A DNA stretch of 64,000 nt from Candidatus Velesiimonas alkalicola (GCA_013626165.1 NDHX01000005.1:26875-90874); one strand, 5' to 3'; positions 26,210-59,686 are shown, numbered from the stretch's first letter. Made by a program: numbers and translations. The notes: generated by a model not told the origin, from the letters alone.

Positions 26210-27587
26210 GTTATAAAATAGTGATATGTCCTATTTCTTAACAAATGAAATGTCCGCTTTCAAAGCGGGGAATGATAATATGTTTGGCCTAATCAAGGAG
26301 GTTAGGTATGCAGACATATTATCCAAAACCCGCACTGGAGCGGGCAATGAAGGTTCAGGAGGTCATATTACGGGCTATAAGCGGACAGATTCACTGGATT
26401 CAAGCGGCAGAGATATTAGGCATATCAGACCGGCAGATGCGCCGGTGGAAATGGCGCTACGAAAAACACGGTTATGACGGCCTATATGACAGGCGCAGGA
26501 AGATACCAAGCCCCAAAAGAGTGCCTTTAGAGACCGTGGAAAAGGTCCTGCGTTTATACAGGGAAAAATACTTCGATTTTAATATGTCCCATTTTTACGA
26601 TAAGTTACGAAAAGAGCACAATATAAAATTAAGTTATAACTGGATAAGGCTTGCCTTACAAGGCGCCGGACTCGTTGAAAGACGCCAAAGACGCTCTCCC
26701 CACAGAAAACGCCGAGCAAGGAAGCCCCTAATAGGCATGATGCTCCACATGGACGGTTCTCCTCATGACTGGTTCGGTAACGGCTTAGAATATGATATCG
26801 TCACTATATCGGATGACGCAAATAATGAGCTCTACGGCATAGAACTGGCAGACGAGGAGGATTCTCTTACCTGCATGTCTCTTATCAGGAACCTCATCGA
26901 GAAGAAAGGCATATTCTGCTCGTTATACACAGACAGGGCAAGCCACTTCTTCCTTACTAAAAAGGCAGGAGAAGACGTCTCCAAAGACAACCTTACCCAA
27001 ATAGGAAGGGCCTTGCAGGAATTAGGCGCCCAGCATATCCCTTCTTATTCGCCGCAGGCAAGAGGCAGATCAGAAAGACTTAACGAGACCCTACAAGGCA
27101 GAATTCCTCAAGAACTAAGGCTAAGAGGCATAAAAACAAAGGAAGCCGCCAATAGATACCTAAAGACAGAATATCTCAAAGAACACAACAGAAGATTCGC
27201 AATAAAGCCAGAAGGCGAAGGCAGCGCCTTTATCCCGGTACCTAAGACAACGGATTTAGACAAGATTTTTTGCTTCAAACACGAAAGGACCGTCAACAAC
27301 GATAACACCATATCGTTTAACAACCGGATACTCCAAATAGGCCCATCAGAACTTAGGGTATCGTTCGCCAAATGCAGAGTTACTGTCTATGAACATATAG
27401 ATGGCTCTGTGACTATAGGATACGGCCCTCATACGCTTGGTTATTATCCGCCCAAAGGCTTATCCACATATCCATACAATTCACAAAAAGAAAAGGTAGC
27501 CAAAAGAAAAAGGACTACTACTAACATTAACCAAAAGCGGACACATCACTTGTTAGAAAAAGCGGACATCTTGACTATTTAATTACA
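26210..27587 (+). mobile_element. Intact insertion sequence (~1378 bp) with imperfect terminal inverted repeats, flanked by a 17-bp direct repeat TCTCCAAAAAAAGTACT (26193-26209 and 27588-27604)
   Basis: A perfect 17-bp direct repeat brackets the element. Termini are GTTATAAAATAGTGATATGTCC (left) vs the reverse complement of the right end, TGTAATTAAATAGTCAAGATGTCC. It holds a single long transposase ORF. Confidence 0.75.
26308..27582 (+). CDS. Transposase, rve (retroviral integrase-type DDE) catalytic core with N-terminal HTH. It is IS481-like or ISNCY (IS1202-group)-like.
   Basis: 424 aa. DDE candidates lie in HMDGS (D), LYTDRASHF (D, ~60 aa later) and SERLNETLQ (E, ~39 aa later). The N-terminal segment ILGISDRQMRRWKWRY looks HTH-like. 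Confidence 0.75.
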   Translation: MQTYYPKPALERAMKVQEVILRAISGQIHWIQAAEILGISDRQMRRWKWRYEKHGYDGLYDRRRKIPSPKRVPLETVEKVLRLYREKYFDFNMSHFYDKLRKEHNIKLSYNWIRLALQGAGLVERRQRRSPHRKRRARKPLIGMMLHMDGSPHDWFGNGLEYDIVTISDDANNELYGIELADEEDSLTCMSLIRNLIEKKGIFCSLYTDRASHFFLTKKAGEDVSKDNLTQIGRALQELGAQHIPSYSPQARGRSERLNETLQGRIPQELRLRGIKTKEAANRYLKTEYLKEHNRRFAIKPEGEGSAFIPVPKTTDLDKIFCFKHERTVNNDNTISFNNRILQIGPSELRVSFAKCRVTVYEHIDGSVTIGYGPHTLGYYPPKGLSTYPYNSQKEKVAKRKRTTTNINQKRTHHLLEKADILTI

Positions 27588-42810: not shown

Positions 42811-42971
42811 GCCTGTTGCACAGCTCCATTTCTACTCTGGCAAATTACGAAATGCGGTCAACCAATTTATATTGAAAGATTAAGTGAATCTGCTACAATA
42901 ATGCTTATGGCAGTACAGAAAACTATAAAAAACGAATTCGTATATTAATTGTTAGACACACGAGAAAGATT

Positions 42972-43226
42972 ATGAATAAAAGTAAACTGCTACAAAAGCT
43001 ACTTTCCGGTTCAAAAAATATCAGATTTTCAGAGGCAGTAGCGGGTGCTAAGATGTTTGGATTTCGGTTGGACCGTATCAACAGCAGCCATCATATTTTT
43101 GTACATCCCGACGTGCCAGAATTGGTAAATCTCCAAGATGTTAAAGGAAAAGCAAAGTCATACCAGGTGAAACAATTATTGCAGATTGTTGAACGATATA
43201 ATCTTCAAATGGAGGATGAAGCATGA
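42972..43226 (+). CDS. hicA: HicA-family toxin (YcfA-like mRNA interferase)
   Basis: 84 aa with GFRLDRINSSHHIFVHPD (GSHH-type HicA motif). Overlaps the downstream HicB-like gene. Confidence 0.6.
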   Translation: MNKSKLLQKLLSGSKNIRFSEAVAGAKMFGFRLDRINSSHHIFVHPDVPELVNLQDVKGKAKSYQVKQLLQIVERYNLQMEDEA

Positions 43227-43441
43227 AAGATTACCATGTCAATGTATTTTACAGTGACGAAGACGAGGGGTACATTGCAGATATACCCGACTTAAAACAT
43301 TGCTCCGCTTTTGGCAAAACGCCAGAAGAGGCACTGGAAGAGGTATTGAAAGCAAAAGAAGCATGGCTTGAGGCAGCACGTACTAATGGAAAACCGATAC
43401 CAATCCCTCATTTTCGACCATTGATCTATCAAGTTGTGTGA
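43223..43441 (+). CDS. hicB: HicB-family antitoxin (UPF0150-like)
   Basis: 72 aa: YHVNVFYSDEDEGYIADIPDLKHCSAFGKTPEEALEEVLKAKEAWLE, the typical HicB N-terminal fold pattern. Confidence 0.6.
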   Translation: MKDYHVNVFYSDEDEGYIADIPDLKHCSAFGKTPEEALEEVLKAKEAWLEAARTNGKPIPIPHFRPLIYQVV

Positions 43442-43537
43442 ACAAATGTGTCTAACAAGGCGCTGCACCTGACCCTCAAACGCAGTAGCGTTTTCGGGCA
43501 GGTGAGATCTATCATTAGAACCGCAAGAAGGACAAAA

Positions 43538-43723
43538 ATGAAGATGATATATTGGAAAGGGAAAAAGTTTTGGGTTGGCAAACTTCTCGAACATCCGGAG
43601 ATAATGACTCAGGGCAAGACTCTTAAGGAATTGGAAGAAAACTTAAGGGACGCCTATCTGCTTATGGCAATGGACGAAGTCCCTAAAGAACACCAAATCA
43701 AAGAACTTGCCCTTACCGTATGA
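43538..43723 (+). CDS. hicB: HicB-family antitoxin (second copy; the tracked ORF starts earlier at 43448)
   Basis: MKMIYWKGKKFWVGKLLEHPEIMTQGKTLKELEENLRDAYLLMAMDE is the HicB pattern. Its stop overlaps the start of the next gene. Confidence 0.55.
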   Translation: MKMIYWKGKKFWVGKLLEHPEIMTQGKTLKELEENLRDAYLLMAMDEVPKEHQIKELALTV

Positions 43724-43893
43724 GACTGAAAGAACTCATCAAAAAGATAGGTGAAGCAGGATGCGTTTTTGTCAGACACGGAAGAAATCATGATCTTTAC
43801 GTGAATCCCAAAACCGGCAAAAGACAACCTGTACCAAGACACAATGAAATTGACGACTATCTTGCCAAGCATATAATCAAACTGTTGACATAA
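43720..43893 (+). CDS. hicA: HicA-family toxin (second copy, 57 aa; below the ORF-track size cutoff)
   Basis: ATG at 43720 overlapping the HicB TGA. It encodes MRLKELIKKIGEAGCVFVRHGRNHDLYVNPKTGKRQPVPRHNEIDDYLAKHIIKLLT. Confidence 0.55.
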   Translation: MRLKELIKKIGEAGCVFVRHGRNHDLYVNPKTGKRQPVPRHNEIDDYLAKHIIKLLT

Positions 43894-44026
43894 CTTATAC
43901 ACTTCATTGACTATTTTTAGTAGGCGTGCTATCTTGAGATATAATAACGTTTAAGTTCGGCCGTTGAGAAGAAAGATTTAATATGAAAAAACGTATACAG
44001 TTTCAGGGCACACTTATATTCTTATG

Positions 44027-47828: not shown

Positions 47829-49211
47829 ATGTGGATAGATACTCACTGTCATTTGGATTTTAAAAATTTCAACAAGGACAGGGATGGTGTTCTTGAAAAA
47901 GCTTTTTCTTGTGGTGTAAAGAAAGTTATAAATCCGGCAGCATCAATCCAATCCAGCAGGAATGCTATTGATATATCTGCAAGATATAAAAATGTGTTTG
48001 CAGCCATAGGCATCCATCCAATAGATGCAGATGAATGGACGCCCCTGAATTTTAAGATTATTAAAGATCTTGCAAAATCTGAAAAAGTTATTGCAATAGG
48101 TGAAACAGGTCTTGATTATTACAGAACCGAGACAAAAAAGGGGAAACAAATAAAAAGTTTTAACGCACACATTGAGATTGCTGGACACCTTGACCTTCCG
48201 TTAATAATCCACATAAGAGATGCATTTGAGGATGCAATATCTATACTATCCCGCAGGGCAGAATCTGGCGCAAAAAATAAAGTAAAAGGGGTTGTCCATT
48301 GTTTTTCAGGAAATATAAAACAGGCAGAATCTATTCTTGATTTAGGACTTTATATATCGTTTACCGGAAATATAACATATCCCAAAGCAAAACATTTAAG
48401 AGAGGTTGTTTCTTATGTTCCAATAGAAAAAATGATGGTAGAAACCGATGCCCCTTTTCTTGCTCCGCAAGGTATCCGAGGAAAAAGAAATGAACCCTGC
48501 TATGTTATAGAGGTTGGAAAGGTTCTTACAGAGATCAAGAAATTATCCCTGCAGGATGTTGAAAGAATCACAAGTTTGAATGCAATACAGTTGTTCAGTA
48601 TAGGAGAAGAAAAATCAAAACAAAACATTGCATATCCAATAAGAGATTCATTGTATCTTAATATAACAAACAGATGCACAAATGTTTGTTCATTTTGTAT
48701 AAGGGCAAAAACCGATTTTATAAAAGGACATTTTTTAAGACTTGAAACTGAACCCGCAATAGAACAGATTATAGATGCTATAGCGGATGCAAAATCATAT
48801 AAAGAGGTTGTATTCTGTGGATATGGGGAACCAACGCTAAGACTTGATATTGTTGTAAGGGTTGCAGAAAGATTAAAAAAGATGGGTGTTCCTGTCCGAC
48901 TGAATACCAATGGGCATGGCAGCCTTATTGCCGGGAAGGATATAGTGCCTGAGATTGCAGGCAGGGTTGACAAGGTAAGCATAAGCCTTGATGCTCACGA
49001 TTCTATCACATACAATAAAATATGCAAACCTGTCTGGGGCGAAAAAACATTTGATGCAATACTTGAGTTTGCAAAAAGGTGCCTTGAACTTAATATAGAT
49101 GTAGAACTAACAGTCGTTAGAATTCCAACAGTGGATGTTGAAAAATGCAAAGAAATTGCTCACCAATTAGGGACAGTTTTCAGAGTAAGAGAATACGATG
49201 AAGTGGGATAG
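47829..49211 (+). CDS. Fusion: TatD-family metallo-hydrolase (N-terminal) plus TatD-associated radical SAM domain (C-terminal)
   Basis: 460 aa. N-terminal WIDTHCHLD..., GLDYY and HCFSG are TatD motifs. C-terminal LNITNRCTNVCSFC (CX3CX2C) and GEPTL are radical SAM motifs. Confidence 0.75.
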   Translation: MWIDTHCHLDFKNFNKDRDGVLEKAFSCGVKKVINPAASIQSSRNAIDISARYKNVFAAIGIHPIDADEWTPLNFKIIKDLAKSEKVIAIGETGLDYYRTETKKGKQIKSFNAHIEIAGHLDLPLIIHIRDAFEDAISILSRRAESGAKNKVKGVVHCFSGNIKQAESILDLGLYISFTGNITYPKAKHLREVVSYVPIEKMMVETDAPFLAPQGIRGKRNEPCYVIEVGKVLTEIKKLSLQDVERITSLNAIQLFSIGEEKSKQNIAYPIRDSLYLNITNRCTNVCSFCIRAKTDFIKGHFLRLETEPAIEQIIDAIADAKSYKEVVFCGYGEPTLRLDIVVRVAERLKKMGVPVRLNTNGHGSLIAGKDIVPEIAGRVDKVSISLDAHDSITYNKICKPVWGEKTFDAILEFAKRCLELNIDVELTVVRIPTVDVEKCKEIAHQLGTVFRVREYDEVG

Positions 49212-50199: not shown

Positions 50200-50386
50200 G
50201 AATAGAAATGTCAAATATCAAATATCAAATATTAAATATCATTACACATAAGGTTCTGTGATGTGGAGGTGTCCTGTGTATTATATAGGAGACCTTTTTA
50301 TTAAATCTTTATAATTTAAAATTTATTCAAAATTGGAAATTAAAAATTCCTCACCTCTACTACCTACTATATTTTCGGAGGGGTGG

Positions 50387-50468
50387 CAGAGTGGACGAAT
50401 GCGGCGGTCTCGAAAACCGTTATCCGTCTTAAAACGGATCGGGGGTTCAAATCCCTTCCCCTCCGCCA
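50387..50468 (+). tRNA. tRNA-Ser (anticodon CGA). It marks the boundary of the downstream R-M island.
   Basis: GGAGGGG TG GCA GAGTGGACGAA TGC ... anticodon loop CTCGAAA, a long variable arm, T-arm GGGGGTTCAAATCCCTTC and 3' CCGCCA. Confidence 0.8.
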
Positions 50469-50655
50469 AAGAACCCCGAAGGAGAAACTTCGTTTCCCTA
50501 CGGGGCAGGCCTGAAAAAATGCTTGCCCCGTTAAATTTGCGAAGTAAATTTGTTCGGGGTCGGCTCGAACTTTATTTTGGCCAGAAGCGAGCTTTTCTTT
50601 ATTTTCATTCTAATATCTCTATGCTAACTATAGTATGTAGAACTAAAAATAGCAA

Positions 50656-50892
50656 GTGTATATAATAGAAGTATCTAATGTGAAACGAGAAATACTATTA
50701 AAGTTTGGTAATAAAGTCCGTGGACGACGGCTTAAATTAGGTTTATCTCAGGAAGAGTTATCTTCTCGTGCCGGCGTTCATAGAACATACATCGGAATGA
50801 TTGAAAGGGCAGAAAAAAATATAACACTCGAGAATATTGAAAAAATCGCTAAGGCACTAGAAATCTCGTTAGACAACCTTATGAAATTTTAA
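50656..50892 (+). CDS. Controller (C) protein, XRE-family HTH, of R-M system A (possible alternative GTG start at 50680)
   Basis: 78 aa with LKLGLSQEELSSRAGVHRTYIGMIERAEKNITLENIEKIAKALEISLDNL matching the C-protein family. The ACTATAGT palindrome just upstream (50627-50634) is C-box-like. Confidence 0.7.
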   Translation: MYIIEVSNVKREILLKFGNKVRGRRLKLGLSQEELSSRAGVHRTYIGMIERAEKNITLENIEKIAKALEISLDNLMKF

Positions 50893-50902
50893 AAATGCTT
50901 TT

Positions 50903-51748
50903 ATGGAAAAGAGACATCGACAACATCTAAAAACACGAAAAAGTCCGCCCTTTAACCTTTTATCCAAGGGACAAGAGGATACGGCAAAAGTGGCTTCGAA
51001 TATTGTGTGGGAAACAATACTTAAAAAATACCCACACTTAGATTTTAATAATCTTGAGACACTGGGTCTTAAAGACTTGAAAGCTGGATATGCTATTGCG
51101 TATATAAACCGAGGCACAAAATTAGTCGGTTTGCCAGAAAGAAAACCCAAAGAATTACAAGCCTTCGACTCCGCAGACGGAATTAAACCTGATGGCGGTA
51201 TATTTTTTGTTCAATCAAAAAAAGATAATTTTAACCATATTATTGGCGCGCTTGAAGTAAAACATCAAGGAGAATATGACGGATATACGCCAATTAGTGA
51301 CGCCGATTGGAAGAAGAAAGGCGGCGACCCTTCAATTCCAAGAGAGAAAAGACCGCCTCAAGCACAAGGTAATGCGATAGAGAGATTTGCTAAAAACGCC
51401 AATGCCATAAAAACACTAACCAGTTTTTATGGCTACAATCCTTATATTGTTTTTACTGAAGGGTTTGACTTTTTCCTTAAAGATGATTTCAAGATTTTTG
51501 AAAAACAACCGCATTCTTCCCGTTTCAAAAACAGAGATTCTTCGATTCTTATGAGGTTGATAGCTGGAAATGATTGGCTTCCGCTCAATAGGGTATATGT
51601 TGATTGCTTGCAGCACGGTAATACCCAAATCTGCCCAGCGACAATTTTTGCTCGAATGTCAAAATGGAGCGCAGAGGAAATCGCGAAAATTATGTTAGTA
51701 GTTATCGATAAATCTCTTGCGCGTCTACGCAAACTTGATGAGATTTAA
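50903..51748 (+). CDS. EcoRI-family type II restriction endonuclease
   Basis: 281 aa with DGIKPDGGIFFV, EVKHQGE and AQGNAIERFAKN, which correspond to EcoRI motifs (SIKPDGGI, EAKHQG, AAGNAIER). Confidence 0.75.
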   Translation: MEKRHRQHLKTRKSPPFNLLSKGQEDTAKVASNIVWETILKKYPHLDFNNLETLGLKDLKAGYAIAYINRGTKLVGLPERKPKELQAFDSADGIKPDGGIFFVQSKKDNFNHIIGALEVKHQGEYDGYTPISDADWKKKGGDPSIPREKRPPQAQGNAIERFAKNANAIKTLTSFYGYNPYIVFTEGFDFFLKDDFKIFEKQPHSSRFKNRDSSILMRLIAGNDWLPLNRVYVDCLQHGNTQICPATIFARMSKWSAEEIAKIMLVVIDKSLARLRKLDEI

Positions 51749-52944
51749 GCAGTTTTCTTTTCAAGAATCCAAAGCAATTCTTTGACTTTTATATCCCTAT
51801 CGCGCAGATTTCTTGAGCCGCGATAAGTGTTATAATCTTGCTCCATTAGTTCCCATTTCCCGTATTGCGAGAGAATTTTTTTGAAGACATCAATTGGAAT
51901 TATTCCCTCGTCGTTATAGGAAATCGCAATAAATTTTGCCCGAGTACCGGCCAAGAGTTGATCCATCGCATCTTCGGCAATCTTTCTTTTGTTATACGCC
52001 GATCTGTTCCATTCTTTTGCTATACCGCTTACACCATCTTGTATTCCCACTGGCTTACCGCCATTGATAATATTAAGCATAAAGTAATTCGAGCCATAAG
52101 GATGTTGATTATAGGGTGGGTCATAATAGACTAAATCAAAGAATGGAATATTTTTGTCTTTCACCAGTTCATTTACATCTCGTTTGCAAACAAACACAGG
52201 ACACTCAAAATCAGAAAATTCAGGCACATCAAGCGAAATTTCTTTTTTAATACGAGAAAGAGCGTTTTCCCCCCGTCCGCCAAAATGTCCATTGCCGTTG
52301 TGCTTATGAAATCCCTTAAACACGCCTGATGTGTTTGTGTGGATAGACGCTTTTACCAAAAGCGAGGCGAGACAAAAATGTTTATATTTTCTTGGCACTT
52401 CATCAATCAGTTCCCGTAAGTTATCTATAATTTTTGCGTTTTTGTTTGTGTAAAATACTCTTTCTCCTTGTTGGACATTATTATCATTTTTTGGAGCATA
52501 ATTTTTTTCTATAAATCCAATATCATTAGCTTTAAGTTTTAATTTATTTTCGTTGAGCCAATTTATATATTTTTCTAATTCTTTTATATCTATTTCTGAT
52601 TTATTAGCAAGATAAGCATGATTTAATGTTTCGGCGTAATCTTCCAAATCGTTTACATGAAGTTCGCTCGCAAATGCTTTTAACAAGCGAGCCGCCGCAC
52701 CACTTCCGACGAAGCCATCTAGTATAACCATTTTTTGCTTCCCTAACTTTTCCCTGATTTTCAGAAATCCTTTATACAGAAAAGGCAGTAGCCGTCGTTT
52801 ATTGCCAATATAGGTAATAAGATGGGAAGTAAAAAATGGGCTCTGTAAGTCTAAATTTTTTACAGGGTCTGAAGGAAACAAATTCAATTTCGATTGTGGA
52901 TAATGTTTCGATGGCATATTTTTTCTGATAACTTTAGTATACAC
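51745..52944 (-). CDS. Dam-like (D12-class, alpha) N6-adenine DNA methyltransferase of R-M system A
   Basis: 399 aa: YIGNKRRLLPFL...ILDGFVGSGAAARLL...NDLED...DPPY. The order matches Dam/EcoRV-type MTases. Convergent with, and 4 bp overlapping, the REase gene. Confidence 0.75.
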   Translation of the reverse strand: MYTKVIRKNMPSKHYPQSKLNLFPSDPVKNLDLQSPFFTSHLITYIGNKRRLLPFLYKGFLKIREKLGKQKMVILDGFVGSGAAARLLKAFASELHVNDLEDYAETLNHAYLANKSEIDIKELEKYINWLNENKLKLKANDIGFIEKNYAPKNDNNVQQGERVFYTNKNAKIIDNLRELIDEVPRKYKHFCLASLLVKASIHTNTSGVFKGFHKHNGNGHFGGRGENALSRIKKEISLDVPEFSDFECPVFVCKRDVNELVKDKNIPFFDLVYYDPPYNQHPYGSNYFMLNIINGGKPVGIQDGVSGIAKEWNRSAYNKRKIAEDAMDQLLAGTRAKFIAISYNDEGIIPIDVFKKILSQYGKWELMEQDYNTYRGSRNLRDRDIKVKELLWILEKKTA

Positions 52945-52989
52945 AATTGAAAAAATAATAGCAAGAGGGTATTATTAAATATAGAAGAA

Positions 52990-53250
52990 AATTTGCCGCC
53001 AAAGAAAAACTTGTCATGCCTGAGGCAGATCCGCCTCTGGCGGAAAATCGTCCTTCTCGCCTCCGCTTCCCACCTACGCACTGCTTCGGTCGGGCAGGCA
53101 AGGCGAGGCAGGCAGAAAAGGGTTTGGTCTTTGCTTTTCTGCCCGGCGGAGCCAATCTGTCACAAAATCAGTTCGGATATTTTCAAACAGGCACCGCCAG
53201 TTGGTAAAAGCGAAGTTTGGCTCGCCACCCGTCCCGCCCTCTAAGCCCAT
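52990..53250. repeat. GC-rich structured repeat block (copy 1 of a family also at 59000-59340, with a degenerate copy near 9560-9620)
   Basis: Shares a ~60-bp core CCGCTTCCC(A/G)CCT...CTTCGGTCGGGCAGGCAAGGCGAGGC and an AAAAGGCACCGCCA motif with 59115-59290. Contains a TCCGCC-TCT-GGCGGA hairpin. Confidence 0.8.
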
Positions 53251-53462
53251 CACAAAAATTGGTTGCTTTATTGTTTTTAATATTTCTGAAATAAATTCTA
53301 TAAAACTTTATCATGAGCATAGAGGGCGGGATGAATTTTTTGTCTTTGTCCCGCAAAGCAGAACGTCAGAAGCGGGCTTTTCTTTTTCTTGATTGTTTTG
53401 TTTTTATTTGTTATCATATACTTGTATAGAATTATAGCAGAACAATTTAATGTTATCAAATT

Positions 53463-53675
53463 ATGGAAAATAATCAAGAAAATAAACTGGGAAAAAAGAT
53501 AAAATCATTTCGGCTTAAACTTGAACTTTCACAGGACGAATTTGCCAGAAAAGCTGATATTCCTTACACCACGCTAACTAAAATTGAAACCGGCGTTATT
53601 AAGAAGCCATCGGTTTTTGTTATGGCAAAAATCGCCAAAGCACTGGGTGTTTCGATTGAGGATTTAATAAAATAA
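53463..53675 (+). CDS. Controller-type HTH protein (XRE family) of R-M system B
   Basis: 70 aa with LSQDEFARKADIPYTTLTKIETGVIKKPSVFVMAKIAKALGVSIEDLIK. The last ~50 nt are identical to gene 56183-56389. Confidence 0.7.
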   Translation: MENNQENKLGKKIKSFRLKLELSQDEFARKADIPYTTLTKIETGVIKKPSVFVMAKIAKALGVSIEDLIK

Positions 53676-53679
53676 AACT

Positions 53680-54348
53680 ATGAAAAATTCATTTTTAAGA
53701 GCAATCTCAAAAACATTTCGAGCTTACAATACTTTCGGTGCTAGAAGTAATAAAAAATTAATTCCTGTACATAAATGGTTTGCCGAGGTCATAGAAAATA
53801 AATTAGGGAAAGGATATTCGGTTAAAAGTTTAGGGAAAGACGGAGAATTTAAAATAGATGGAAAATACTATCCAAAAACACTAGACATTTCTATTTTTAA
53901 AAATCAAAGAATAATTACGACAATTAGTTTTAAGTTTGTTACCTCAAATTATAAACAGAACTCAAATAATTATTTCGAAAACTTACTTGGAGAAACCGCA
54001 AATATAAGACGAGTAAATGTTGGCTTCGCCCATTTTCTAGTTTTGCGAGCTCGCACCCCCTATTATGATAAAAATAAAGGCAGCCTGAGAGGAAAAGAAA
54101 AGAAGATAGAAATTTTAAACGAAAATGATTTAGTAAAATATGTTAAACTTTTTAATGATTTGGATTTCCCGCACAAACCAGAAGTGTTAGGTATGGCTAT
54201 AATAGATTTTGATAAACGAGGATGTGCTTATTTTGAAAACTTAAAAAATTTAGGGCTGACAGAAGAAACAAAAAATATTTTAGAAAGTCAATTATCAGTA
54301 GAAAATTTCATTGGGAAAGTAATAGCGTTGTGTAAATTAAAATCCTAG
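53680..54348 (+). CDS. Putative type II restriction endonuclease of system B (family not recognised by eye)
   Basis: 222 aa ORF. It starts 5 nt after the C gene stop and ends 4 nt before the MTase start. No similarity to housekeeping families is recognised. Confidence 0.45.
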   Translation: MKNSFLRAISKTFRAYNTFGARSNKKLIPVHKWFAEVIENKLGKGYSVKSLGKDGEFKIDGKYYPKTLDISIFKNQRIITTISFKFVTSNYKQNSNNYFENLLGETANIRRVNVGFAHFLVLRARTPYYDKNKGSLRGKEKKIEILNENDLVKYVKLFNDLDFPHKPEVLGMAIIDFDKRGCAYFENLKNLGLTEETKNILESQLSVENFIGKVIALCKLKS

Positions 54349-54351
54349 ACT

Positions 54352-55905
54352 ATGAAAATTAGCGAAAAAAAATTAAATGGCATTGTTTATACTCCTCAAT
54401 GGATTGTTGAGTTAATTTTGGACAATCTCGATTATAAAAATAATATTTACCAAAAAAAGATTATTGATCCGGCTTGCGGAGATGGGGCATTTTTAAGCGA
54501 AGTGCTTGTTAGATTTCTTAAAGATGCTAAAAAAGCAAAAATAGAAAATAAGATTATAAAAGAAAAAATAGAAAACAATATATTCGGCTTTGATATCGAC
54601 GAAAATGCTATAAAAAAATGTATTTTAATACTGGAAGGTATTGCCAAAAAATATGACTTAAAAAATATTAAATGGAATATCTTAAAGACGGATAGTTTAG
54701 ATAAATTTTTCGTTAGTAGATTTTTTGGTTCATTCGATTTCGTTGTTGGCAATCCACCATATATTAGGATTCAACATCTTGGTCTAAAAAGAAGGGAAAA
54801 AATTCAGAATGAATGGCAATTATGTAAAAAGGGGTCAACGGACATTTTTATTACCTTTTTTGAGCTCGGTTATTATTTGTTAAAAAAAACCGGGAAATTG
54901 GGTTATATTGCGCCAAACACTTATCTTAAAACAAAAGCAGGCGAAGGTTTAAGAAACTTTATAAAATTCCACCAAATATTAAAAACACTGATTGATTTTG
55001 AGCATAATCAATTATTTGATAACGCTACGACTTATTCTTTGATAACTATTTTAGATAAAAACCACAAGAAAAACACCTTTTTTTTATTTAAGGGCAATAA
55101 AGAAAATATAAATTATATTGATGAGATAAATATTGAAAATTTAAACAAAGATAATTGGATTTTAACTTCAAACGATATTCTTGAAAAATTAAATAAAATT
55201 GAAAAAAGAGGATTGCATCTGAATGAAATTGCAAAAATTCACGTCGGGATAACCACGCTTGCAGATGATTATTATATTTTTAAGGACCCTGTAATCGATG
55301 GCGATTTCGCAGAAATTAAATTAAAAGATGGAAGAGTATTCCAAGTCGAACGGGAAATTTTAAAACCGATAATAAAAGCCTCTGTGCTTAAAAATCCTAA
55401 TGAGAACCAAAATCGTTTTATAATTTTCCCTTATAAAAAAGTGAACAGCAGGCATTCTATTATTCCAGAAAAGGATCTGAAAGAAAAATATCCTTTTACA
55501 TATAAATATTTTGAGGCAATAAAAGAAGTTCTTGATAATCGCGATAAAGGAAAACCGAATCCTGTTGATTGGTATGCATTTGGAAGGTCACAGGGTCTTG
55601 ATACTTCATTTGGTAAAAAAATATTAACATCGCCAATAAATCTAAAACCAAATTTTATTGTTTGGGAAAAAGAAGAATATACTTTTTATGCCGGATATTG
55701 CATTAAATTCGATGGAGATCTAAAACTTTTAGCTAAACATCTAAACTCAAAAGATATGGAGTTTTACATTAACCATATTAGTAGAAACTATCAAAATAAT
55801 TATAAATCTTTCGCTAAAAGTTTTATCGAGAGATTTGGTATTGATGATTTAAATTTGGTAAATGGGCAGAAACAAAGACAACGATTATTGATATTTCAAC
55901 ACTAA
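54352..55905 (+). CDS. Gamma-class N6-adenine DNA methyltransferase (Eco57I/TaqI-like, NPPY) with C-terminal target-recognition domain
   Basis: 517 aa with motif X GIVYTP, motif I IIDPACGDGAFL and motif IV GNPPYIRIQ. Confidence 0.8.
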   Translation: MKISEKKLNGIVYTPQWIVELILDNLDYKNNIYQKKIIDPACGDGAFLSEVLVRFLKDAKKAKIENKIIKEKIENNIFGFDIDENAIKKCILILEGIAKKYDLKNIKWNILKTDSLDKFFVSRFFGSFDFVVGNPPYIRIQHLGLKRREKIQNEWQLCKKGSTDIFITFFELGYYLLKKTGKLGYIAPNTYLKTKAGEGLRNFIKFHQILKTLIDFEHNQLFDNATTYSLITILDKNHKKNTFFLFKGNKENINYIDEINIENLNKDNWILTSNDILEKLNKIEKRGLHLNEIAKIHVGITTLADDYYIFKDPVIDGDFAEIKLKDGRVFQVEREILKPIIKASVLKNPNENQNRFIIFPYKKVNSRHSIIPEKDLKEKYPFTYKYFEAIKEVLDNRDKGKPNPVDWYAFGRSQGLDTSFGKKILTSPINLKPNFIVWEKEEYTFYAGYCIKFDGDLKLLAKHLNSKDMEFYINHISRNYQNNYKSFAKSFIERFGIDDLNLVNGQKQRQRLLIFQH

Positions 55906-56182
55906 AAATTGTGTAAAGTTTTAAAAATATTTTTTAAATAAATATGACACCAGAATCGGCAGGGCCGAACAATCCGCCAAAGGCGGATTAGAAAAACTTG
56001 AAATCGTCGCCTCGCTGTGCGAGGCGCAAACCGCCGAAAAACCTGAAAAAATGTCGGCTCAAACTTTATTTTGGCCAGAAGCAGGCTTTTTCTCATTTTT
56101 TGTTTGATTGTTTTTATAATATTTGTTATCATTATATTGAAAAGATAATATATCACTTACATACTATCAAATTATTGAAAAT

Positions 56183-56389
56183 ATGGCAACAGAAATCAAC
56201 ATAGGCGAAAATATAAAGAAATACCGAAATAAACAAGGATTATCTCAAGAGGATTTTGCTAAGAAATCAGGCGTAAAATATACTACCCTGACTAAAATTG
56301 AGAGCAATGTAATAAAAAAGCCGTCCGTGCTTGTTATGGCGAAAATCGCCAAAGCACTGGGTGTTTCGATTGAGGATTTAATAAAATAA
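56183..56389 (+). CDS. Controller-type HTH protein (XRE family) of R-M system C
   Basis: 68 aa with LSQEDFAKKSGVKYTTLTKIESNVIKKPSVLVMAKIAKALGVSIEDLIK. Its C-terminal DNA is identical to gene 53463-53675. Confidence 0.7.
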   Translation: MATEINIGENIKKYRNKQGLSQEDFAKKSGVKYTTLTKIESNVIKKPSVLVMAKIAKALGVSIEDLIK

Positions 56390-56394
56390 AAAAT

Positions 56395-57027
56395 ATGTCA
56401 AGTAAAATAATAGAAATTTTTAACGATGAAAAGTTGATAGATAAAATTAAGAATCGCCTGCCACATTTATTTCAGTTAGCGGAATTAGAAAGCTCAAGAG
56501 CTGGGAAAATTGGAATGGAGGTCGGTTCTTTGCGCGAAAAGATTATTACTGCACTGCTTATTTATAAATTTGGGAAAGAAAATGTTGAGACAGAAATCCC
56601 CATAACCGAATCAGAAATTGATGCTAACCTTTTTGGAGCCCCCATCTCTATTAAAACAATAACCGGTACTAGATTCGGAGGAGTTAAACTAGTTTGGACG
56701 GTTGATGCCAAAAAAGCAGACGAATTTCGTAAAAATTATGAGCCCAGTTACGATATATTGTTTATACAAATTAATTGGGGAAGCGTAGGGGGATTTTACT
56801 ATATTCCATTGGAATCTCAGCGAAGGTTGTTCGATCGAATAGGGAGAGAAAATTATATTCAACTTCCAAAACCGGGAACAAACCCGAGAGGAGCGGAGAT
56901 TACTAAAGAAGCGCTATCAAGTTTAGTTAGAGACAAAGATGCCAAGACCATAGAAATACTATGGAAAAAGACAACAATAGAGTTTAACCCATATAAAAGA
57001 TGGGTAGATTACTGGAAAGAAGATTAG
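56395..57027 (+). CDS. Putative type II restriction endonuclease of system C
   Basis: 210 aa ORF between the C gene and the MTase gene in the same tight operon layout (5-nt and 1-nt spacers). Confidence 0.45.
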   Translation: MSSKIIEIFNDEKLIDKIKNRLPHLFQLAELESSRAGKIGMEVGSLREKIITALLIYKFGKENVETEIPITESEIDANLFGAPISIKTITGTRFGGVKLVWTVDAKKADEFRKNYEPSYDILFIQINWGSVGGFYYIPLESQRRLFDRIGRENYIQLPKPGTNPRGAEITKEALSSLVRDKDAKTIEILWKKTTIEFNPYKRWVDYWKED

Positions 57028-57028
57028 T

Positions 57029-57949
57029 ATGATATACCATAATTATAAAAGAAAAAATGGAACGCAAACCAGCGCCTTTGGTGCACCAGGTCGAATTAAC
57101 CATGACTCGTCAAAATTTTATAACAGCAAGCTTTATGAGGGGTTAAATAATGGAAAAGATGTTGAGTATGTTGAAAATCCAATTGAACCGCAAAATATAA
57201 ACAAAGTTTTTTGCAAGAGCAGTGAGGCAATGATAGAACTTCCAGATAACAGTGTTCATTTGATGGTCACTTCACCACCTTATAATGTTGGTAAAATGTA
57301 TGATGAAAATTTATCCCTCAAAGAATATAGAGAGTTGCTAAAACGAGTATTCAAAGAAACATACAGGGTTTTGGTCCCCGGCGGTAGAGCTTGTATAAAT
57401 ATAGCAAATTTAGGCAGAAAACCATATTTGCCACTTCACAGTTATATCATAGAAGATATGCACGCTCTTGGTTTTTTGATGAGGGGCGAGTTGCTTTGGG
57501 ACAAAGGAAGTAGCGCAAGTTCTTCAACAGCTTGGGGAACTTATCTAAAAGCAAACAATCCGGTATTGCGGGATGTCCATGAATATATTCTTGTTTTTTG
57601 TAAAGATACATTCACTCGTTTAAATCCGCATAAAAGAAAAAGTACCATTTCAAAAGAAGAATTTTTAGAATTTACAAAGAGTGTTTGGAAATTTTCCGCA
57701 GAGCGAGCTTCAAAAGTAGGCCACCCCGCTCCTTTTCCAGTTGAACTACCTTATCGCTTAATCCAACTTTATACTTTTGAAGGCGATGTTGTCCTTGACC
57801 CATTTGTTGGCGCCGGAACTACTTGCATTGCGGCACTAAAAACCAATAGAAAATATGTGGGTTATGATATTGATAAACAATATTGTGATTTGGCGGAACG
57901 AAGAATAAAACAATTTTTACAAGAACAAACGACATTATTTTCGAAATAA
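57029..57949 (+). CDS. Beta-class DNA methyltransferase (N4-cytosine/N6-adenine, SPPY motif; MethyltransfD12/N6_N4_Mtase family)
   Basis: 306 aa with motif IV VTSPPYNVGK upstream of motif I VVLDPFVGAGTT, the beta-class order (IV before I). Confidence 0.8.
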   Translation: MIYHNYKRKNGTQTSAFGAPGRINHDSSKFYNSKLYEGLNNGKDVEYVENPIEPQNINKVFCKSSEAMIELPDNSVHLMVTSPPYNVGKMYDENLSLKEYRELLKRVFKETYRVLVPGGRACINIANLGRKPYLPLHSYIIEDMHALGFLMRGELLWDKGSSASSSTAWGTYLKANNPVLRDVHEYILVFCKDTFTRLNPHKRKSTISKEEFLEFTKSVWKFSAERASKVGHPAPFPVELPYRLIQLYTFEGDVVLDPFVGAGTTCIAALKTNRKYVGYDIDKQYCDLAERRIKQFLQEQTTLFSK

Positions 57950-57965
57950 ACCAAACGTTCAAACT

Positions 57966-58019
57966 ATGGCGAAAATTGCCAAAGCGTTGGGTGTTTCGAT
58001 TGAGGAGTTATTAAAATGA
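57966..58019 (+). pseudogene. Remnant of a fourth controller gene: only the last 17 codons (MAKIAKALGVSIEELLK*) survive, overlapping the start of the downstream ORF
   Basis: DNA atggcgaaaattgccaaagcgttgggtgtttcgattgaggagttattaaaatga is near-identical to the 3' ends of the C genes at 53463-53675 and 56183-56389. Its TGA overlaps the ATG at 58016. Confidence 0.7.
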
Positions 58020-58915
58020 AAACTATAAAAAGCAAAACACTCGCAATATTTGGAGTAGTAACTTGGATACTTTCGGTTGCGTCTTTGGCTAAAGATCTCG
58101 CTGGAAATTATACGGCTCCAACAGCTTTAATTGTGGTGTCGGCATTGGCAACGCTGGTATTCACGATTATGGCAGTAGTCCGATTATGGAAACCACAAAA
58201 AGTTACTGCCGTTTTGTTTCTTGTATTGTCTTTAGTTTCTCTTGTATACGTTTCGGCTCCAATCAAAATAGTTACCTTCGTTTTGTTTATTTGGGTAATA
58301 TCGCTTCTTTGGGTAATGGGGAAACACGAGGGTCTCGCCAAGAAACTTCAAAAAGATTCTGGACTTACTGATGAAGAATTTTCTGCAATGCTAAAAGAAA
58401 AACAGAAAGGCAATGATAAAGCGGTAGAGAAAATACTTGCTTCAGCGCAAGAACGCGCTAAGGCAAAATATAAAGAAGTTACAGGCGTTAATCCAAAAAG
58501 CATTGTCCCAGAAATCGGCAAGGAGATTTCATGGGCAGATATTGTAAATCATACATTCCGCGTTTTGGATTTTGACAGAAACGAAACAACTATTGATGAA
58601 AATAATCAGGTAAAAGCCAAGAGCCGGCTCCAACCGTACGGGTATTTGCTCGCAGAATCGCCAATTTTGAATAATCGTGTAAAATTGCCTATTATTCATC
58701 GTGATGATTTTCTCCTTGCCGCAAGCGTATTTGATGAACCAAAATTGGCGGCTATGGTTAAAGACGAAGAATTGCTTGTAGTTTACTCGCCAAAACATTT
58801 AGGGCCAAAAGGGTTATCCGGTAGTCCCCACCACGTTTTACATTACGCGATTACGCCTCACGGGACATTAGACGCTTACTACTCGAAAAACAATGATATA
58901 TATGGCGAGACCTGA
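58016..58915 (+). CDS. Membrane protein of unknown function (3-4 N-terminal TM helices plus a soluble C-terminal domain), occupying the R/M position of a fourth cassette
   Basis: 299 aa with a hydrophobic N-terminus (IFGVVTWILSVASLA..., ALIVVSALATLVFTIMAVV, VLFLVLSLVSLVYV, VTFVLFIWVISLLWV) and a charged middle region. No recognised family. Confidence 0.55.
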   Translation: MKTIKSKTLAIFGVVTWILSVASLAKDLAGNYTAPTALIVVSALATLVFTIMAVVRLWKPQKVTAVLFLVLSLVSLVYVSAPIKIVTFVLFIWVISLLWVMGKHEGLAKKLQKDSGLTDEEFSAMLKEKQKGNDKAVEKILASAQERAKAKYKEVTGVNPKSIVPEIGKEISWADIVNHTFRVLDFDRNETTIDENNQVKAKSRLQPYGYLLAESPILNNRVKLPIIHRDDFLLAASVFDEPKLAAMVKDEELLVVYSPKHLGPKGLSGSPHHVLHYAITPHGTLDAYYSKNNDIYGET

Positions 58916-58999
58916 ACCACAGAAGTTAGTTGGACAATTTGTATATCAAGGTGAGATAAAAGTGCAGATAAATCCTGAACAGGAATTTTAAGGATTTGC

Positions 59000-59340
59000 C
59001 GCCAAAGAGGAAAATCATTTATGATTTTCCTTGCGGGCTACCGCCCGCGAAAAACTTGAAATCGTCCCCCGAAGTAGTCCGCCTTGGGCGGACACTACGG
59101 GGCAGGCTTTTCGCTTCCGCTTCCCGCCTTCACTTTTCAGCTTCGGTCGGGCAGGCAAGGCGAGGCGGGTGGAAAGGGGGTTCGGGGGGAAGGAATTTTT
59201 GCCCGCCCGAGCGGAAAAGTTTTTTAGAAATCAATTTCCGGATTTTCGTTAAAATAGGTTCGAATTTTAACCAAAAGGCACCGCCAATTTTCAGAATTCG
59301 GATTTTGGGCAATAAGTTACCTCGCCCCACCAGAGAAACT
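59000..59340. repeat. GC-rich structured repeat block (copy 2) closing the island
   Basis: Shares a conserved core with 53067-53130, a GAAAAACTTGAAATCGTC motif with 55985-56010, and the hairpin TCCGCC-TTG-GGCGGA. The ORF-track genes starting MPPK(R)K inside both copies are artefacts of the repeat. Confidence 0.8.
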
Positions 59341-59686
59341 GTGTTGCAATGCAGAAGACTTGATTATTAAGCCCAATCAGAAATTCCGAAATAAGGATTA
59401 AACAAGTATTTGATAAATTTAGCCCTGTAAGATATAATACGCTTATCACCCGCCCACCTGTTGCGTTGAAAAGAAAGAGGCGGATGCGGTAACCTGCCGC
59501 CTGTCTCTGCCCTAAGACTTAAGATGTGGGGACAGATGATCAGTTGGGTAGCCGATTCATCCTCTACAACAGACAGTGGCGGATAAACAGTGAACCTTAT
59601 CACCTGAGAGCTCTACAAAGGACCGGGTGAATTGACGGATAATCAGGGATCTGTGCTCACAGACTCTCAAAAAGGAGAATTAAGTT

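Follow-up and report, generated by a model that had tools for sequence, protein, structure and literature searches.

We describe an island of about 8.8 kb (50469-~59300) in a stretch of 64,000 nucleotides from Candidatus Velesiimonas alkalicola (GCA_013626165.1 NDHX01000005.1:26875-90874), which we call the window. The island holds three systems for restriction and modification (R-M) plus one truncated membrane-protein cassette, and lies beside a gene for tRNA-Ser(CGA) (50377-50468, + strand; found by ARAGORN, Rfam tRNA 53.7 bits), the 3' end of which, CCGCCA, forms its left boundary. Each of its four units has at its head a small regulator gene of the controller (C) type or the remnant of one, and repeated junction sequences lie between them. 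The window was compared with metagenome contigs, numbered with an L (L001, L115 etc.); tRNA-Ser genes border the same elements in the related loci.

All genes of the island are on the + strand except M_A. Unit A is headed by C_A (50656-50892), a 78-aa XRE/HTH_3 regulator (Pfam HTH_3 5.7e-17), followed by R_A (50903-51748), an EcoRI-family restriction endonuclease (Pfam EcoRI 4e-14, PADLOC REase_II 2e-12), and M_A (51745-52944, - strand), a D12-class N6-adenine DNA methyltransferase convergent with R_A (Pfam MethyltransfD12 1e-15, PADLOC MTase_II 1e-103). An A-type head is also present after tRNA-Ser(UGA) in L205. Unit B comprises C_B (53463-53675), a 70-aa XRE/HTH_3 regulator which, as discussed below, is recombinant, with the last 50 nt of the C_C lineage; R_B (53680-54348), a nuclease of the PD-(D/E)XK kind that has the fold of a type II restriction enzyme; and M_B (54352-55905), a gamma-class (Eco57I/N6_Mtase) DNA methyltransferase (Pfam Eco57I 2e-28, PADLOC MTase_II 9e-127). 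In unit C we find C_C (56183-56389), a 68-aa XRE/HTH_3 regulator of an ultra-conserved family, the ThaI-family restriction endonuclease R_C (56395-57027; Pfam ThaI 4e-97, PADLOC REase_II 8e-89) and the beta-class N4/N6 DNA methyltransferase M_C (57029-57949; Pfam N6_N4_Mtase 5e-47, PADLOC 4e-141). The fourth unit consists of a C-gene stub (57956-58019), a 3' relic of 17 codons from a third C-gene type (..PSVQTMAKIAKALGVSIE..), the stop codon of which overlaps the start (58016) of an open reading frame (ORF) for a 299-aa membrane protein (58016-58915), the cargo of this truncated cassette; no Pfam or PADLOC family matches that ORF.

The three intact C proteins match HTH_3 at 1e-15 to 4e-19, and in units A, B and C the C gene immediately precedes the endonuclease gene in the same orientation, the gaps being 10, 4 and 5 nt. 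Each of the three has a separate endonuclease and methyltransferase: EcoRI-family with D12, PD-(D/E)XK fold with Eco57I-type and ThaI with N6_N4. An earlier reading, made from the sequence alone (hereafter the sequence-only reading), had proposed three tight C-R-M units after the tRNA and a fourth of similar layout. The three units are real and their putative endonucleases do belong to nuclease families or folds, but unit A is not co-linear (C> R> <M), and the fourth unit is a genuine cassette, of which L195 holds an intact version with its own C gene. A promoter block of ~90 nt upstream of the C genes is conserved together with the gene; no clear palindromic C-box was seen there, only weak inverted repeats no better than the AT-rich background. 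The island is predicted to equip its host with three type II R-M systems under C-protein control, along with a membrane protein. In four other contigs (L199, L190, L200 and L208) an M_C-like methylase (82-88% nucleotide identity to 57045-57949) is paired with a 293-aa first gene instead of ThaI; this gene has no Pfam family.

Four GC-rich junctions, J0 to J3 (50-58% GC vs ~30-38% nearby), lie between the units, J1 and J3 being of a long form (~320-470 nt) and J0 and J2 of a short form (~130-210 nt). They share a 9-nt core that the sequence-only reading had missed, CCGCCAAAG, made up of the last six bases of the tRNA and AAG, which occurs exactly four times in the window, once per junction and always on the + strand (50463, 52996, 55974 and 58999); the chance expectation is 0.27, and none of 100 shuffles reached four. 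Extra CCGCCA pseudo-ends are found at 53194-53199 and 59281-59286. The repeats between junctions hold up on alignment: 50559-50605 is 87% identical to 56053-56099, 53383-53430 is 75% identical to 56098-56145, and 53083-53109 and 59140-59166 are 100% identical. No further copies of the junction blocks occur in the 64 kb, and a dispersed genome-wide repeat (of the repetitive extragenic palindrome or miniature inverted-repeat transposable element kind) is ruled out for the window by this confinement to the four junctions.

The junctions can be resolved into blocks, several of which match codons of a large serine recombinase (LSR) gene that adjoins such cassettes in other contigs. Block a corresponds to LSR codons ~30-34 and contains the core; b corresponds to codons 35-41; p, a perfect palindrome (GCCTCGC-TGT-GCGAGGC), to codons 42-47; and c to codons 48-53. 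Block d' is probably a decayed version of codons 54-62. An optional hairpin insert is termed h, the 17-mer is CCAGAAGCGGGCTTTTC, and block e is the C promoter. Block X, of ~150-180 nt, has the final part GGTTCG.AT...CACCGCCA, a pseudo-tRNA 3' end, and block Y is an arm of 100-130 nt that brackets the LSR gene and closes with the same 17-mer, ~12 nt ahead of the LSR start codon. With this notation J2 becomes a-h-b-p-c-d'-17mer-e, J1 is a-b-X-Y-e, and J3 is a-h-b-X with ~25 nt of Y.

The short junction J0 (50463-50655, +) runs from the core (50463-50471) through a decayed LSR-derived b, d' (50560-50578) and the 17-mer CCAGAAGCGAGCTTTTC (50581-50597) to the A-type C promoter; it reads as a decayed J2 version joined to the tRNA at the core, and its d' block and 17-mer are 91-98% identical to heads in contigs of the Candidate Phyla Radiation (CPR). 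J2 (55971-56182, +) opens with a (55971-55982) and a palindromic insert of 8 nt, after which come b (55991-56008), p (56009-56026), c (56027-56045) and d' (56046-56072); the 17-mer (56075-56091) and then the C_C promoter complete it. Its part 56026-56185 is 94% identical to L115-L124. In the long junction J1 (52990-53462, +), block a (52990-53013) matches LSR codons 30-37, core included, and is followed by X(+) (~53053-53199), which terminates in the pseudo-tRNA end GGCACCGCCA, by Y(+) (53200-53382), the last part of which is the 17-mer (53366-53382), and by the C_B promoter. In relatives Y is the inverted-repeat arm and upstream region of the LSR gene, and J1 is 81-84% identical over 150-176 nt to flanks of LSR genes and cassettes in L115-L124. 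J3 (58993-59313, +), the right end of the island, has a (58993-59008) and the insert h with its two hairpins (59009-59048), followed by b (59049-59066) and by X(+) (59107-59286); the last again terminates in GGCACCGCCA (59277-59286), preceded by a T-loop-like GGTTCGAAT. The distal boundary of the island is in this manner marked by a copy of the tRNA 3' end, as in tRNA-targeted integrative islands; similarity to L195 fades at ~59313.

Insert h forms two hairpins in each copy (window 59009-59048; L115 10237-10279 and 12949-12990), with stem sequences that vary and pairing that is kept: GGAAAATCAT/ATGATTTTCC vs ACAAAATCT/AGATTTTGT vs GTAAAATCA/TGATTTTAC for one stem, GCGGGC/GCCCGC vs AGCGAGC/GCTCGCT for the other. 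This comparison tentatively suggests a conserved structure; Rfam gave no match for the junctions at gathering score or at E <= 5. In L118 (597-640, -) an LSR gene has a 21-nt imperfect palindrome, CCTGCCTGCCGGCCAGGCAGG, between a and b (GCCGCCAAA / GAAAAACTTG), of a length divisible by three and at the same position as h at cassette ends.

The connection to the recombinase emerges from L115-L124, where the junction blocks surround cassettes at 80-94% identity and the adjoining LSR genes encode proteins of 493-509 aa with Resolvase, Recombinase and Zn_ribbon_recom domains. Their N-terminus (L122/L115) includes ...REFAAKEKLEIVASLCEAQTAKEPGR..., encoded by GAATTTGCCGCCAAAGAAAAACTTGAAAT.GTCGCCTCGCT.TGCGAGGCGCAAACCGCCAAAGAACCTG, such that the core CCGCCAAAG doubles as the tRNA-Ser 3' end and as the LSR codons A-A-K. 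In J2, 51 of the 55 nt of 55991-56045 (93%) match the LSR_a gene of L115, and tblastn aligns LSR residues 35-67 with 55991-56086 at 61% identity (E 9e-5), the hits in J1 and J3 being weaker. Blocks a to d' of J2 can hence be read as a contiguous relic of LSR codons ~31-67. More generally, the junction elements are best understood as the backbone of an element, made up of LSR gene relics, pseudo-tRNA-Ser ends and the C promoter. The earlier statement that the locus has no integrase or att-type site and fits no described mechanism does not survive this result, as the junctions hold both recombinase gene relics and tRNA-Ser-type ends. An intact recombinase was not found in the 64-kb window by tblastn with the LSR, and no integrase family of Pfam matched any of 40 ORFs (10 of the island, 20 upstream ORFs of at least 293 aa, and the called genes of L001 and L005). 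A split of the recombinase gene at the core, of the kind known from the virus SSV, was also considered and, in that form, rejected: codons 1-29 are missing to the left of every core, and LSR genes that contain the core stand intact beside tRNA-Ser.

To place the window among its relatives we used the exact 33-nt c-d' junction pattern, which matched at least 120 metagenome stretches; our census consists of 80 loci among the matches listed. Among these, 29 heads have at least 1.8 kb of upstream sequence, and in 21 of them a full-length, divergent LSR gene lies 249-382 nt from the head. Where sequence beyond the LSR is available, a tRNA-Ser gene abuts or overlaps the LSR 3' end in 17 of 20 cases (anticodons TGA in 7, GCT in 8, CGA in 1 and GGA in 1), and of the 67 tRNA genes in the census loci 42 are tRNA-Ser. 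The usual order in relatives is accordingly tRNA-Ser, an LSR gene pointing back at the tRNA, ~260 nt, a head with a small HTH gene, and variable cargo. The head consists of the LSR-derived c-d' block, the 17-mer, the promoter and the small XRE/C regulator gene; the conserved cassette end is formed by the LSR-derived a-b block and an X block closing with the pseudo-tRNA end ...CCGCCA. Four census loci lack the LSR and have tRNA-Ser directly before the head, like the window; in three of the four it is tRNA-Ser(CGA). The family is found mostly on Patescibacteria (CPR) contigs from groundwater. Our search of the literature on serine recombinases in CPR and on the mobility of controller proteins found no description of it, and this tRNA-Ser-associated cassette family is very widespread and apparently undescribed.

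The best-resolved relatives display a regular architecture. L115 has two LSR-head units at two neighbouring tRNA-Ser genes, and each change of sequence in it occurs directly after CCGCCA, be it a true tRNA end or an X pseudo-end; divergence directly after CCGCCA is likewise seen between J1 and J3 and in the variant contig L008. Inverted repeats that are long (72-148 nt) and near-perfect (83-100% identity) enclose the LSR gene on the CPR contigs and, separately, each cassette (L115 5101-6728, 6697-10441, 10573-12178 and 12175-13109; L105 4878-6581 and 6614-12990), such that the bracketed segments potentially form a chain of invertible units. In L202 (1-1700) the LSR segment is co-oriented with the head, the reverse of the usual arrangement and as an inversion between the Y arms would give. 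When compared with NCBIfam, the best partial matches of the LSR are CcrB (87-107 bits, cut-off 900) and XisF (91-96 bits, cut-off 375). As these scores are far below the cut-offs, the LSR is only distantly related to the named families and is not a Ccr.

We then examined how the heads relate to what follows them. C_C belongs to a family with more than 1500 homologues, the best 120 of which have 90-97% aa identity and come from many Patescibacteria lineages, and C_B is a member of a second such family with more than 2400 matches. One and the same 68-aa C protein stands before several kinds of type III Mod/Res system, before a HinfI system and before a CfrBI system with a HEAT-repeat methylase, and the 70-aa family heads yet another R-M system; in every case compared, the first cargo gene begins 1-5 nt past the C stop codon. 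The clearest case is 56026-56394, the right part of J2 plus C_C, which has ~95% DNA identity to L115 6844-7212, the head of a CfrBI system. The homology has an abrupt left stop at CAAACCGCC and a right stop at the first cargo start codon, after which the window has R.ThaI and L115 the methylase of the CfrBI system. Such identity with an abrupt stop at the cargo is direct evidence for a discrete head (right part of the junction, promoter and C gene) joined to unrelated cargo, which bears out the modularity that the sequence-only reading had ascribed to the array. Its further proposal, a shuffling of R-M specificities in particular, proved too narrow: the 49 heads with a readable first cargo gene are followed by 27 first-gene families, which include R-M components (NgoPII, several N6_N4 methylases) and also an MFS and an ABC transporter, a P-type ATPase, a kinase of the APH type, an inositol monophosphatase and a CofE-like ligase. 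The comparisons show that backbone and cargo reassort.

The cassettes of the window have relatives of their own. L178 has a counterpart of cassette C, with 88% identity over the stretch that runs from b-p-c to M_C. L195 is a complete cassette D, with a full head, a 69-aa third-type C gene ending ...PSVQTMAKIAKALGVSIEDLIR, a membrane gene of 85% nucleotide identity and an a-b-X end; given this intact C gene before a homologous membrane ORF, the stub of the window is the remnant of that C gene. Tandem arrays also exist elsewhere: L126 has two C-headed defence units after a tRNA, and L173 and L183 (2675-9975) have the same non-defence cassette (P-type ATPase and MFS transporter, with 70-aa-type C heads) twice in tandem, at a distance of 3880 nt. 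For the head with its C gene there was no match among INPHARED phages or PLSDB plasmids (distant mode), and for the 33-nt pattern none in IMG/VR; an origin from phages or plasmids was rejected on this ground. Exact look-ups of C_C and of P0122 returned no record.

The 3' ends of the C genes proved to be a site of exchange. As the sequence-only reading had observed, C_B and C_C have the same final 50 nt, the preceding 138 nt being 60% identical. In 310 between-family pairs of C genes taken from other loci, identity over the final 51 nt does not exceed 84%; and members of C_B's own family match it on average at 75% (maximum 80%) over the last ~50 nt as opposed to 84% upstream. Being unlike its own family and the same as C_C at this end, C_B carries a C_C-type 3' end. 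A second trace comes from L137, which compared with the window is 56-68% identical in the C region, 96-100% from ~53650 to 54400 (R_B), and ~78% in M_B, a mosaic with its left breakpoint inside the C 3' end; in groundwater contigs the R_B-M_B cargo sits behind a 68-aa C gene and not the 70-aa C_B. The identical tract starts (...GTTATGGC) within a few bases of the point at which the similarity of the stub to C_B and C_C begins (57965); the match of the stub to its own C type (L195) begins ~10 nt further left, at 57956. The stub does keep a C-gene 3' end, in the form of the 17 codons ending at 58019. Recombination took place at the C-gene 3' end, and this part of the earlier proposal stands; but the conservation of the C-terminal protein sequence is family-wide and not specific to this genome. 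The alignment with L195 further shows a deletion that joined cassette C, a few bases past the M_C stop, to the 3' end of the C gene of cassette D.

Two contigs closely related to the window depart from it at the backbone. L001 ends in a J1/J3 hybrid, its X block changing at CCGCTTCCC from J1-type to J3-type sequence. L008 matches the window at 99.2% as far as 59212, and beyond ...CACACCGCCA another, 5'-truncated C gene replaces the ATPase flank. These departures are either strain variants or chimeric assemblies.

In light of these observations we consider it probable that 50469-~59300 is a decayed, recombinase-less composite island at tRNA-Ser(CGA), made up of four cassettes of a widespread family and reshuffled by homologous recombination. 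It would comprise two elements in tandem, element 1 (50469-53199) with cassette A and element 2 (53200-~59300) with cassettes B, C and the truncated D; the latter starts with Y, as LSR elements do after the tRNA end. Arrival and stacking would have occurred by LSR-mediated site-specific integration at the CCGCCA ends of tRNA-Ser. The recombinase genes themselves would since have been lost, that of element 2 plausibly by a deletion between its two 17-mers, which form direct repeats if the LSR segment is oriented as in L202; such a deletion would leave Y directly before the C_B promoter, as is seen. Cassettes B, C and D may have been stacked or swapped by recombination across the backbone, and the sequence mosaics show later reshuffling by homologous recombination and gene conversion over the conserved backbone, the C 3' end included. 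An illegitimate deletion fused cassette C to the C-gene 3' end of cassette D. Today the island is probably immobile, unless an LSR comes in trans.

Several points weigh against this reconstruction. The 64-kb window has no recombinase, and so no sign of activity here, and a role for the LSR is suggested only by its association and by relics. Serine integrases normally need just a 2-bp crossover and leave no long repeats; homologous recombination would account just as well for the shared core of 6-11 nt and for the length of junction in common. Being bracketed by long inverted repeats and present in both orientations, the LSR gene could itself be a self-contained invertible or IS-like unit and not the integrase of the cassettes. 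At the right end, the homology to L195 continues for ~25 nt beyond CCGCCA, which leaves the boundary less than sharp. Single cassettes in CPR loci usually have inverted X arms, whereas the window has only direct repeats, and we found no consistent strand-exchange scheme that covers both arrangements. The presence of LSR codons ~48-67 at the left of each cassette and ~30-41 at the right is likewise without explanation. Finally, no empty site was found, the nearest species-representative relative having only 48% aa identity.

A bolder form of this interpretation, which we put forward tentatively, is that the backbone is a serine-recombinase gene-cassette platform, a functional analogue of the integron that is common in Patescibacteria and crosses phyla, with the window as a fossil array. 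At sites that derive from the gene encoding it, an LSR at tRNA-Ser would then capture cassettes and stack, invert and exchange them; the candidate sites are palindrome p (GCCTCGCTGTGCGAGGC) and the d' block, the latter flanking the LSR in inverted copies. The XRE C head would serve as a portable promoter-regulator adaptor, allowing the safe expression of any captured gene on arrival, be it for an R-M system, a transporter or a kinase.

Homologous recombination might also have acted alone, with the junction blocks and C gene serving as portable homology arms for the swapping, stacking or deletion of cassettes by RecA-type recombination after transformation or transfer, and the LSR as an unrelated selfish or invertase unit at tRNA-Ser ends. 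Such a process would readily produce mosaic breakpoints within conserved blocks, the J1/J3 hybrid at the end of L001, the identical tandem cassettes of L183 and L173, and a backbone that is 90-95% identical across differing cargo; and the LSR does lie within its own inverted repeats, is known in both orientations and is missing from some loci. It leaves unexplained, however, why the elements are sited at tRNA-Ser genes with four anticodons and diverge directly after CCGCCA, why the backbone is built of fragments of the LSR gene, and how one unit spread to unrelated phyla and flanks. We therefore consider it unlikely as the whole explanation.

The account given by the sequence-only reading, in which a new, integrase-independent and integron-like mechanism uses the C-gene 3' end and the upstream element as the anchor for R-M shuffling, now seems improbable. 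The homology break exactly at the first cargo start codon, the identical 3' ends of C_B and C_C and the retention of the 3' end by two independent 5'-truncated C genes (the stub and that of L008) are what it would predict, but a recombinase family is tightly associated with the cassettes in relatives and has left relics in every junction, the cargo is broader than R-M, the C-terminal protein conservation is family-wide, and the breakpoints are such as ordinary homologous recombination within a conserved stretch would leave. That local tandem duplication with divergence, or misassembly, made the repeats is very improbable in spite of the short-read contigs, from several independent assemblies, that break at the same junction points (50494, ~57956 and 59008-59080), because the cargo genes are mutually unrelated, closer relatives are found outside the window (L178 at 88%, L137 at 96-100% for R_B, L195 at 85%), and the order recurs in three independent assemblies.

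Those assemblies dispose of the artefact that the sequence-only reading had itself raised. L001 spans tRNA-Ser through unit A, L005 spans M_C through the ATPase, and L007 (GCA_002581825.1) is colinear with 53720-59067 at 99.6%; in addition, island proteins occur with identical sequence on contigs of four NCBI metagenome assemblies and several Logan assemblies. The shared breaks probably arise from backbone blocks that are common to other genomes in the sample and then diverge, and strain variation could also contribute.

Returning to the favoured interpretation of a decayed composite island, its closest working principle appears to be that of the staphylococcal cassette chromosome (SCC) type of composite island, here combined with C-protein-controlled R-M systems. 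SCC and SCCmec islands use the CcrAB or CcrC large serine recombinases, and consist of LSR-associated cassettes stacked serially at one conserved chromosomal site, with a short direct repeat of the site at each junction; recombinase-less 'pseudo' cassettes are common and the cargo includes R-M and other accessory genes. Stacking at one site with a short site sequence at each junction is equally found in the window, and the recombinase gene in or next to the island, represented in the window by relics only, is found in 21 of the 29 related loci. The best partial NCBIfam matches of the associated LSR include CcrB. In contrast to SCC, which targets rlmH, the present family targets tRNA-Ser 3' ends; its LSR scores 87-107 bits against the Ccr cut-off of 900; a near-identical XRE/C regulator gene with its promoter heads each cassette; fragments of the recombinase gene occur in the junctions and the gene itself lies between long inverted repeats; and the hosts are CPR bacteria and, in the window, an unrelated diderm.

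With respect to integrons, a recombinase gene divergent from a slot of variable, stackable cassettes is a shared feature, as is a conserved block at the cassette ends that sometimes has hairpins, the stems of which differ among three versions with each still pairing. The differences are that the recombinase is of the serine and not the tyrosine type, with no IntI-type integrase in the 40 window ORFs; that the cassettes bring their own promoter and regulator; that their ends are the LSR-derived a-(h)-b block with no attC consensus (no attC model was run); and that the platform itself appears mobile and tRNA-Ser-targeted, with usually one to few cassettes.

The arrangement is also reminiscent of accretion at tRNA or other att sites, known for cis-mobilizable elements (CIMEs), for example ICESt1/CIME in Streptococcus thermophilus, in which related elements stand in tandem at one att site with repeated cores and internal members lack an integrase. 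Integrative mobilizable elements have been reviewed (PMC5704250). Compared with integrative and conjugative elements and CIMEs, the units described here are far smaller (2.5-3 kb), have no transfer genes and share ~95% of their backbone sequence across phyla. R-M complexes are reportedly also formed by 'insertion with long target duplication', said to have been described by Nobusato et al. in 2000 and Furuta et al. in 2010, which places R-M units between direct repeats of at least 100 bp, as here. Unlike such repeats, however, those of the window travel with cassettes into unrelated genomes, and are therefore the backbone of an element rather than a duplicated target.

Type II R-M systems with C proteins include PvuII, BamHI, Esp1396I, Csp231I and Kpn2I (PMC3874152; PMC6237814). 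The units of the window resemble them in having a small HTH_3 gene just upstream of a co-oriented endonuclease gene with a very short gap, and by analogy the C gene would be expected to delay nuclease expression on entering a new host. They differ in that one C gene (93-97% aa, ~95% nucleotide identity with its promoter) is common to many unrelated R-M types and even to non-R-M cargo, in that no clear palindromic C-box was found and regulation here is putative, and in that two closely related C genes are present in one genome. The use of one controller protein for many R-M systems bears on the mutual exclusion and cross-talk of C proteins between co-resident systems.

To our knowledge, CPR/Patescibacteria largely lack CRISPR and rely on R-M systems. 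One backbone with dozens of cargos beside a dedicated recombinase would hence represent a major route of defence and accessory gene exchange in these bacteria, and, as the window shows, these cassettes also reached a diderm that is unrelated to them, in what is probably a habitat of the same type. The window would in this respect be a decayed example that points to a large and apparently undescribed cassette system, and the LSR family, with its short and well-delimited candidate sites, could provide tools for genome engineering.

As to the host, the rest of the window encodes LptF/LptG, enzymes of purine synthesis, a transketolase, an enolase and a protein of the RACo type. The presence of LptFG, RACo and purine synthesis indicates a free-living diderm and not a CPR organism. 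No close relative was found among species-representative genomes, the best match being 48% aa with the TatD-radical-SAM protein as query. The corresponding ORF (47829-49211, +) fuses a TatD-type hydrolase domain to a radical-SAM domain and has a 14-nt overlap with the next gene; its best species-representative relatives, 42-48% identical, are in metagenome-assembled genomes (MAGs) of Omnitrophota, Planctomycetota and Nitrospirota. C_B and R_B are identical to NCBI proteins named 'bacterium Unc6', and Unc8, a sister MAG of Unc6, is from the serpentinising springs at The Cedars (PMC6305446). Going by this sister MAG, the habitat of the window host would be like the springs of Unc8.

Some further features of the surrounding DNA may be recorded. 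A 424-aa ORF (26308-27582, +) has as its sole Pfam matches N-terminal HTH_28, HTH_32 and HTH_29, as IS transposases typically do; outside the island no other candidate gene of a mobile element was found, and this one is 23 kb distant. Two HicA/HicB-type toxin-antitoxin pairs lie downstream of priA at ~42970-43900, according to the gene calls of the 99.7%-identical contig L001. Where the island ends on the right, ~370 untranslated nt (59314-59686) with several GC-rich segments precede the P-type ATPase gene, and Rfam gave no family for them even at E <= 5. In the same genome, ~3.5 kb beyond the right-hand limit of the window, L005 (10343-13864) encodes a 1038-aa MmeI-like type IIG restriction-modification protein along with a RadC-like gene.

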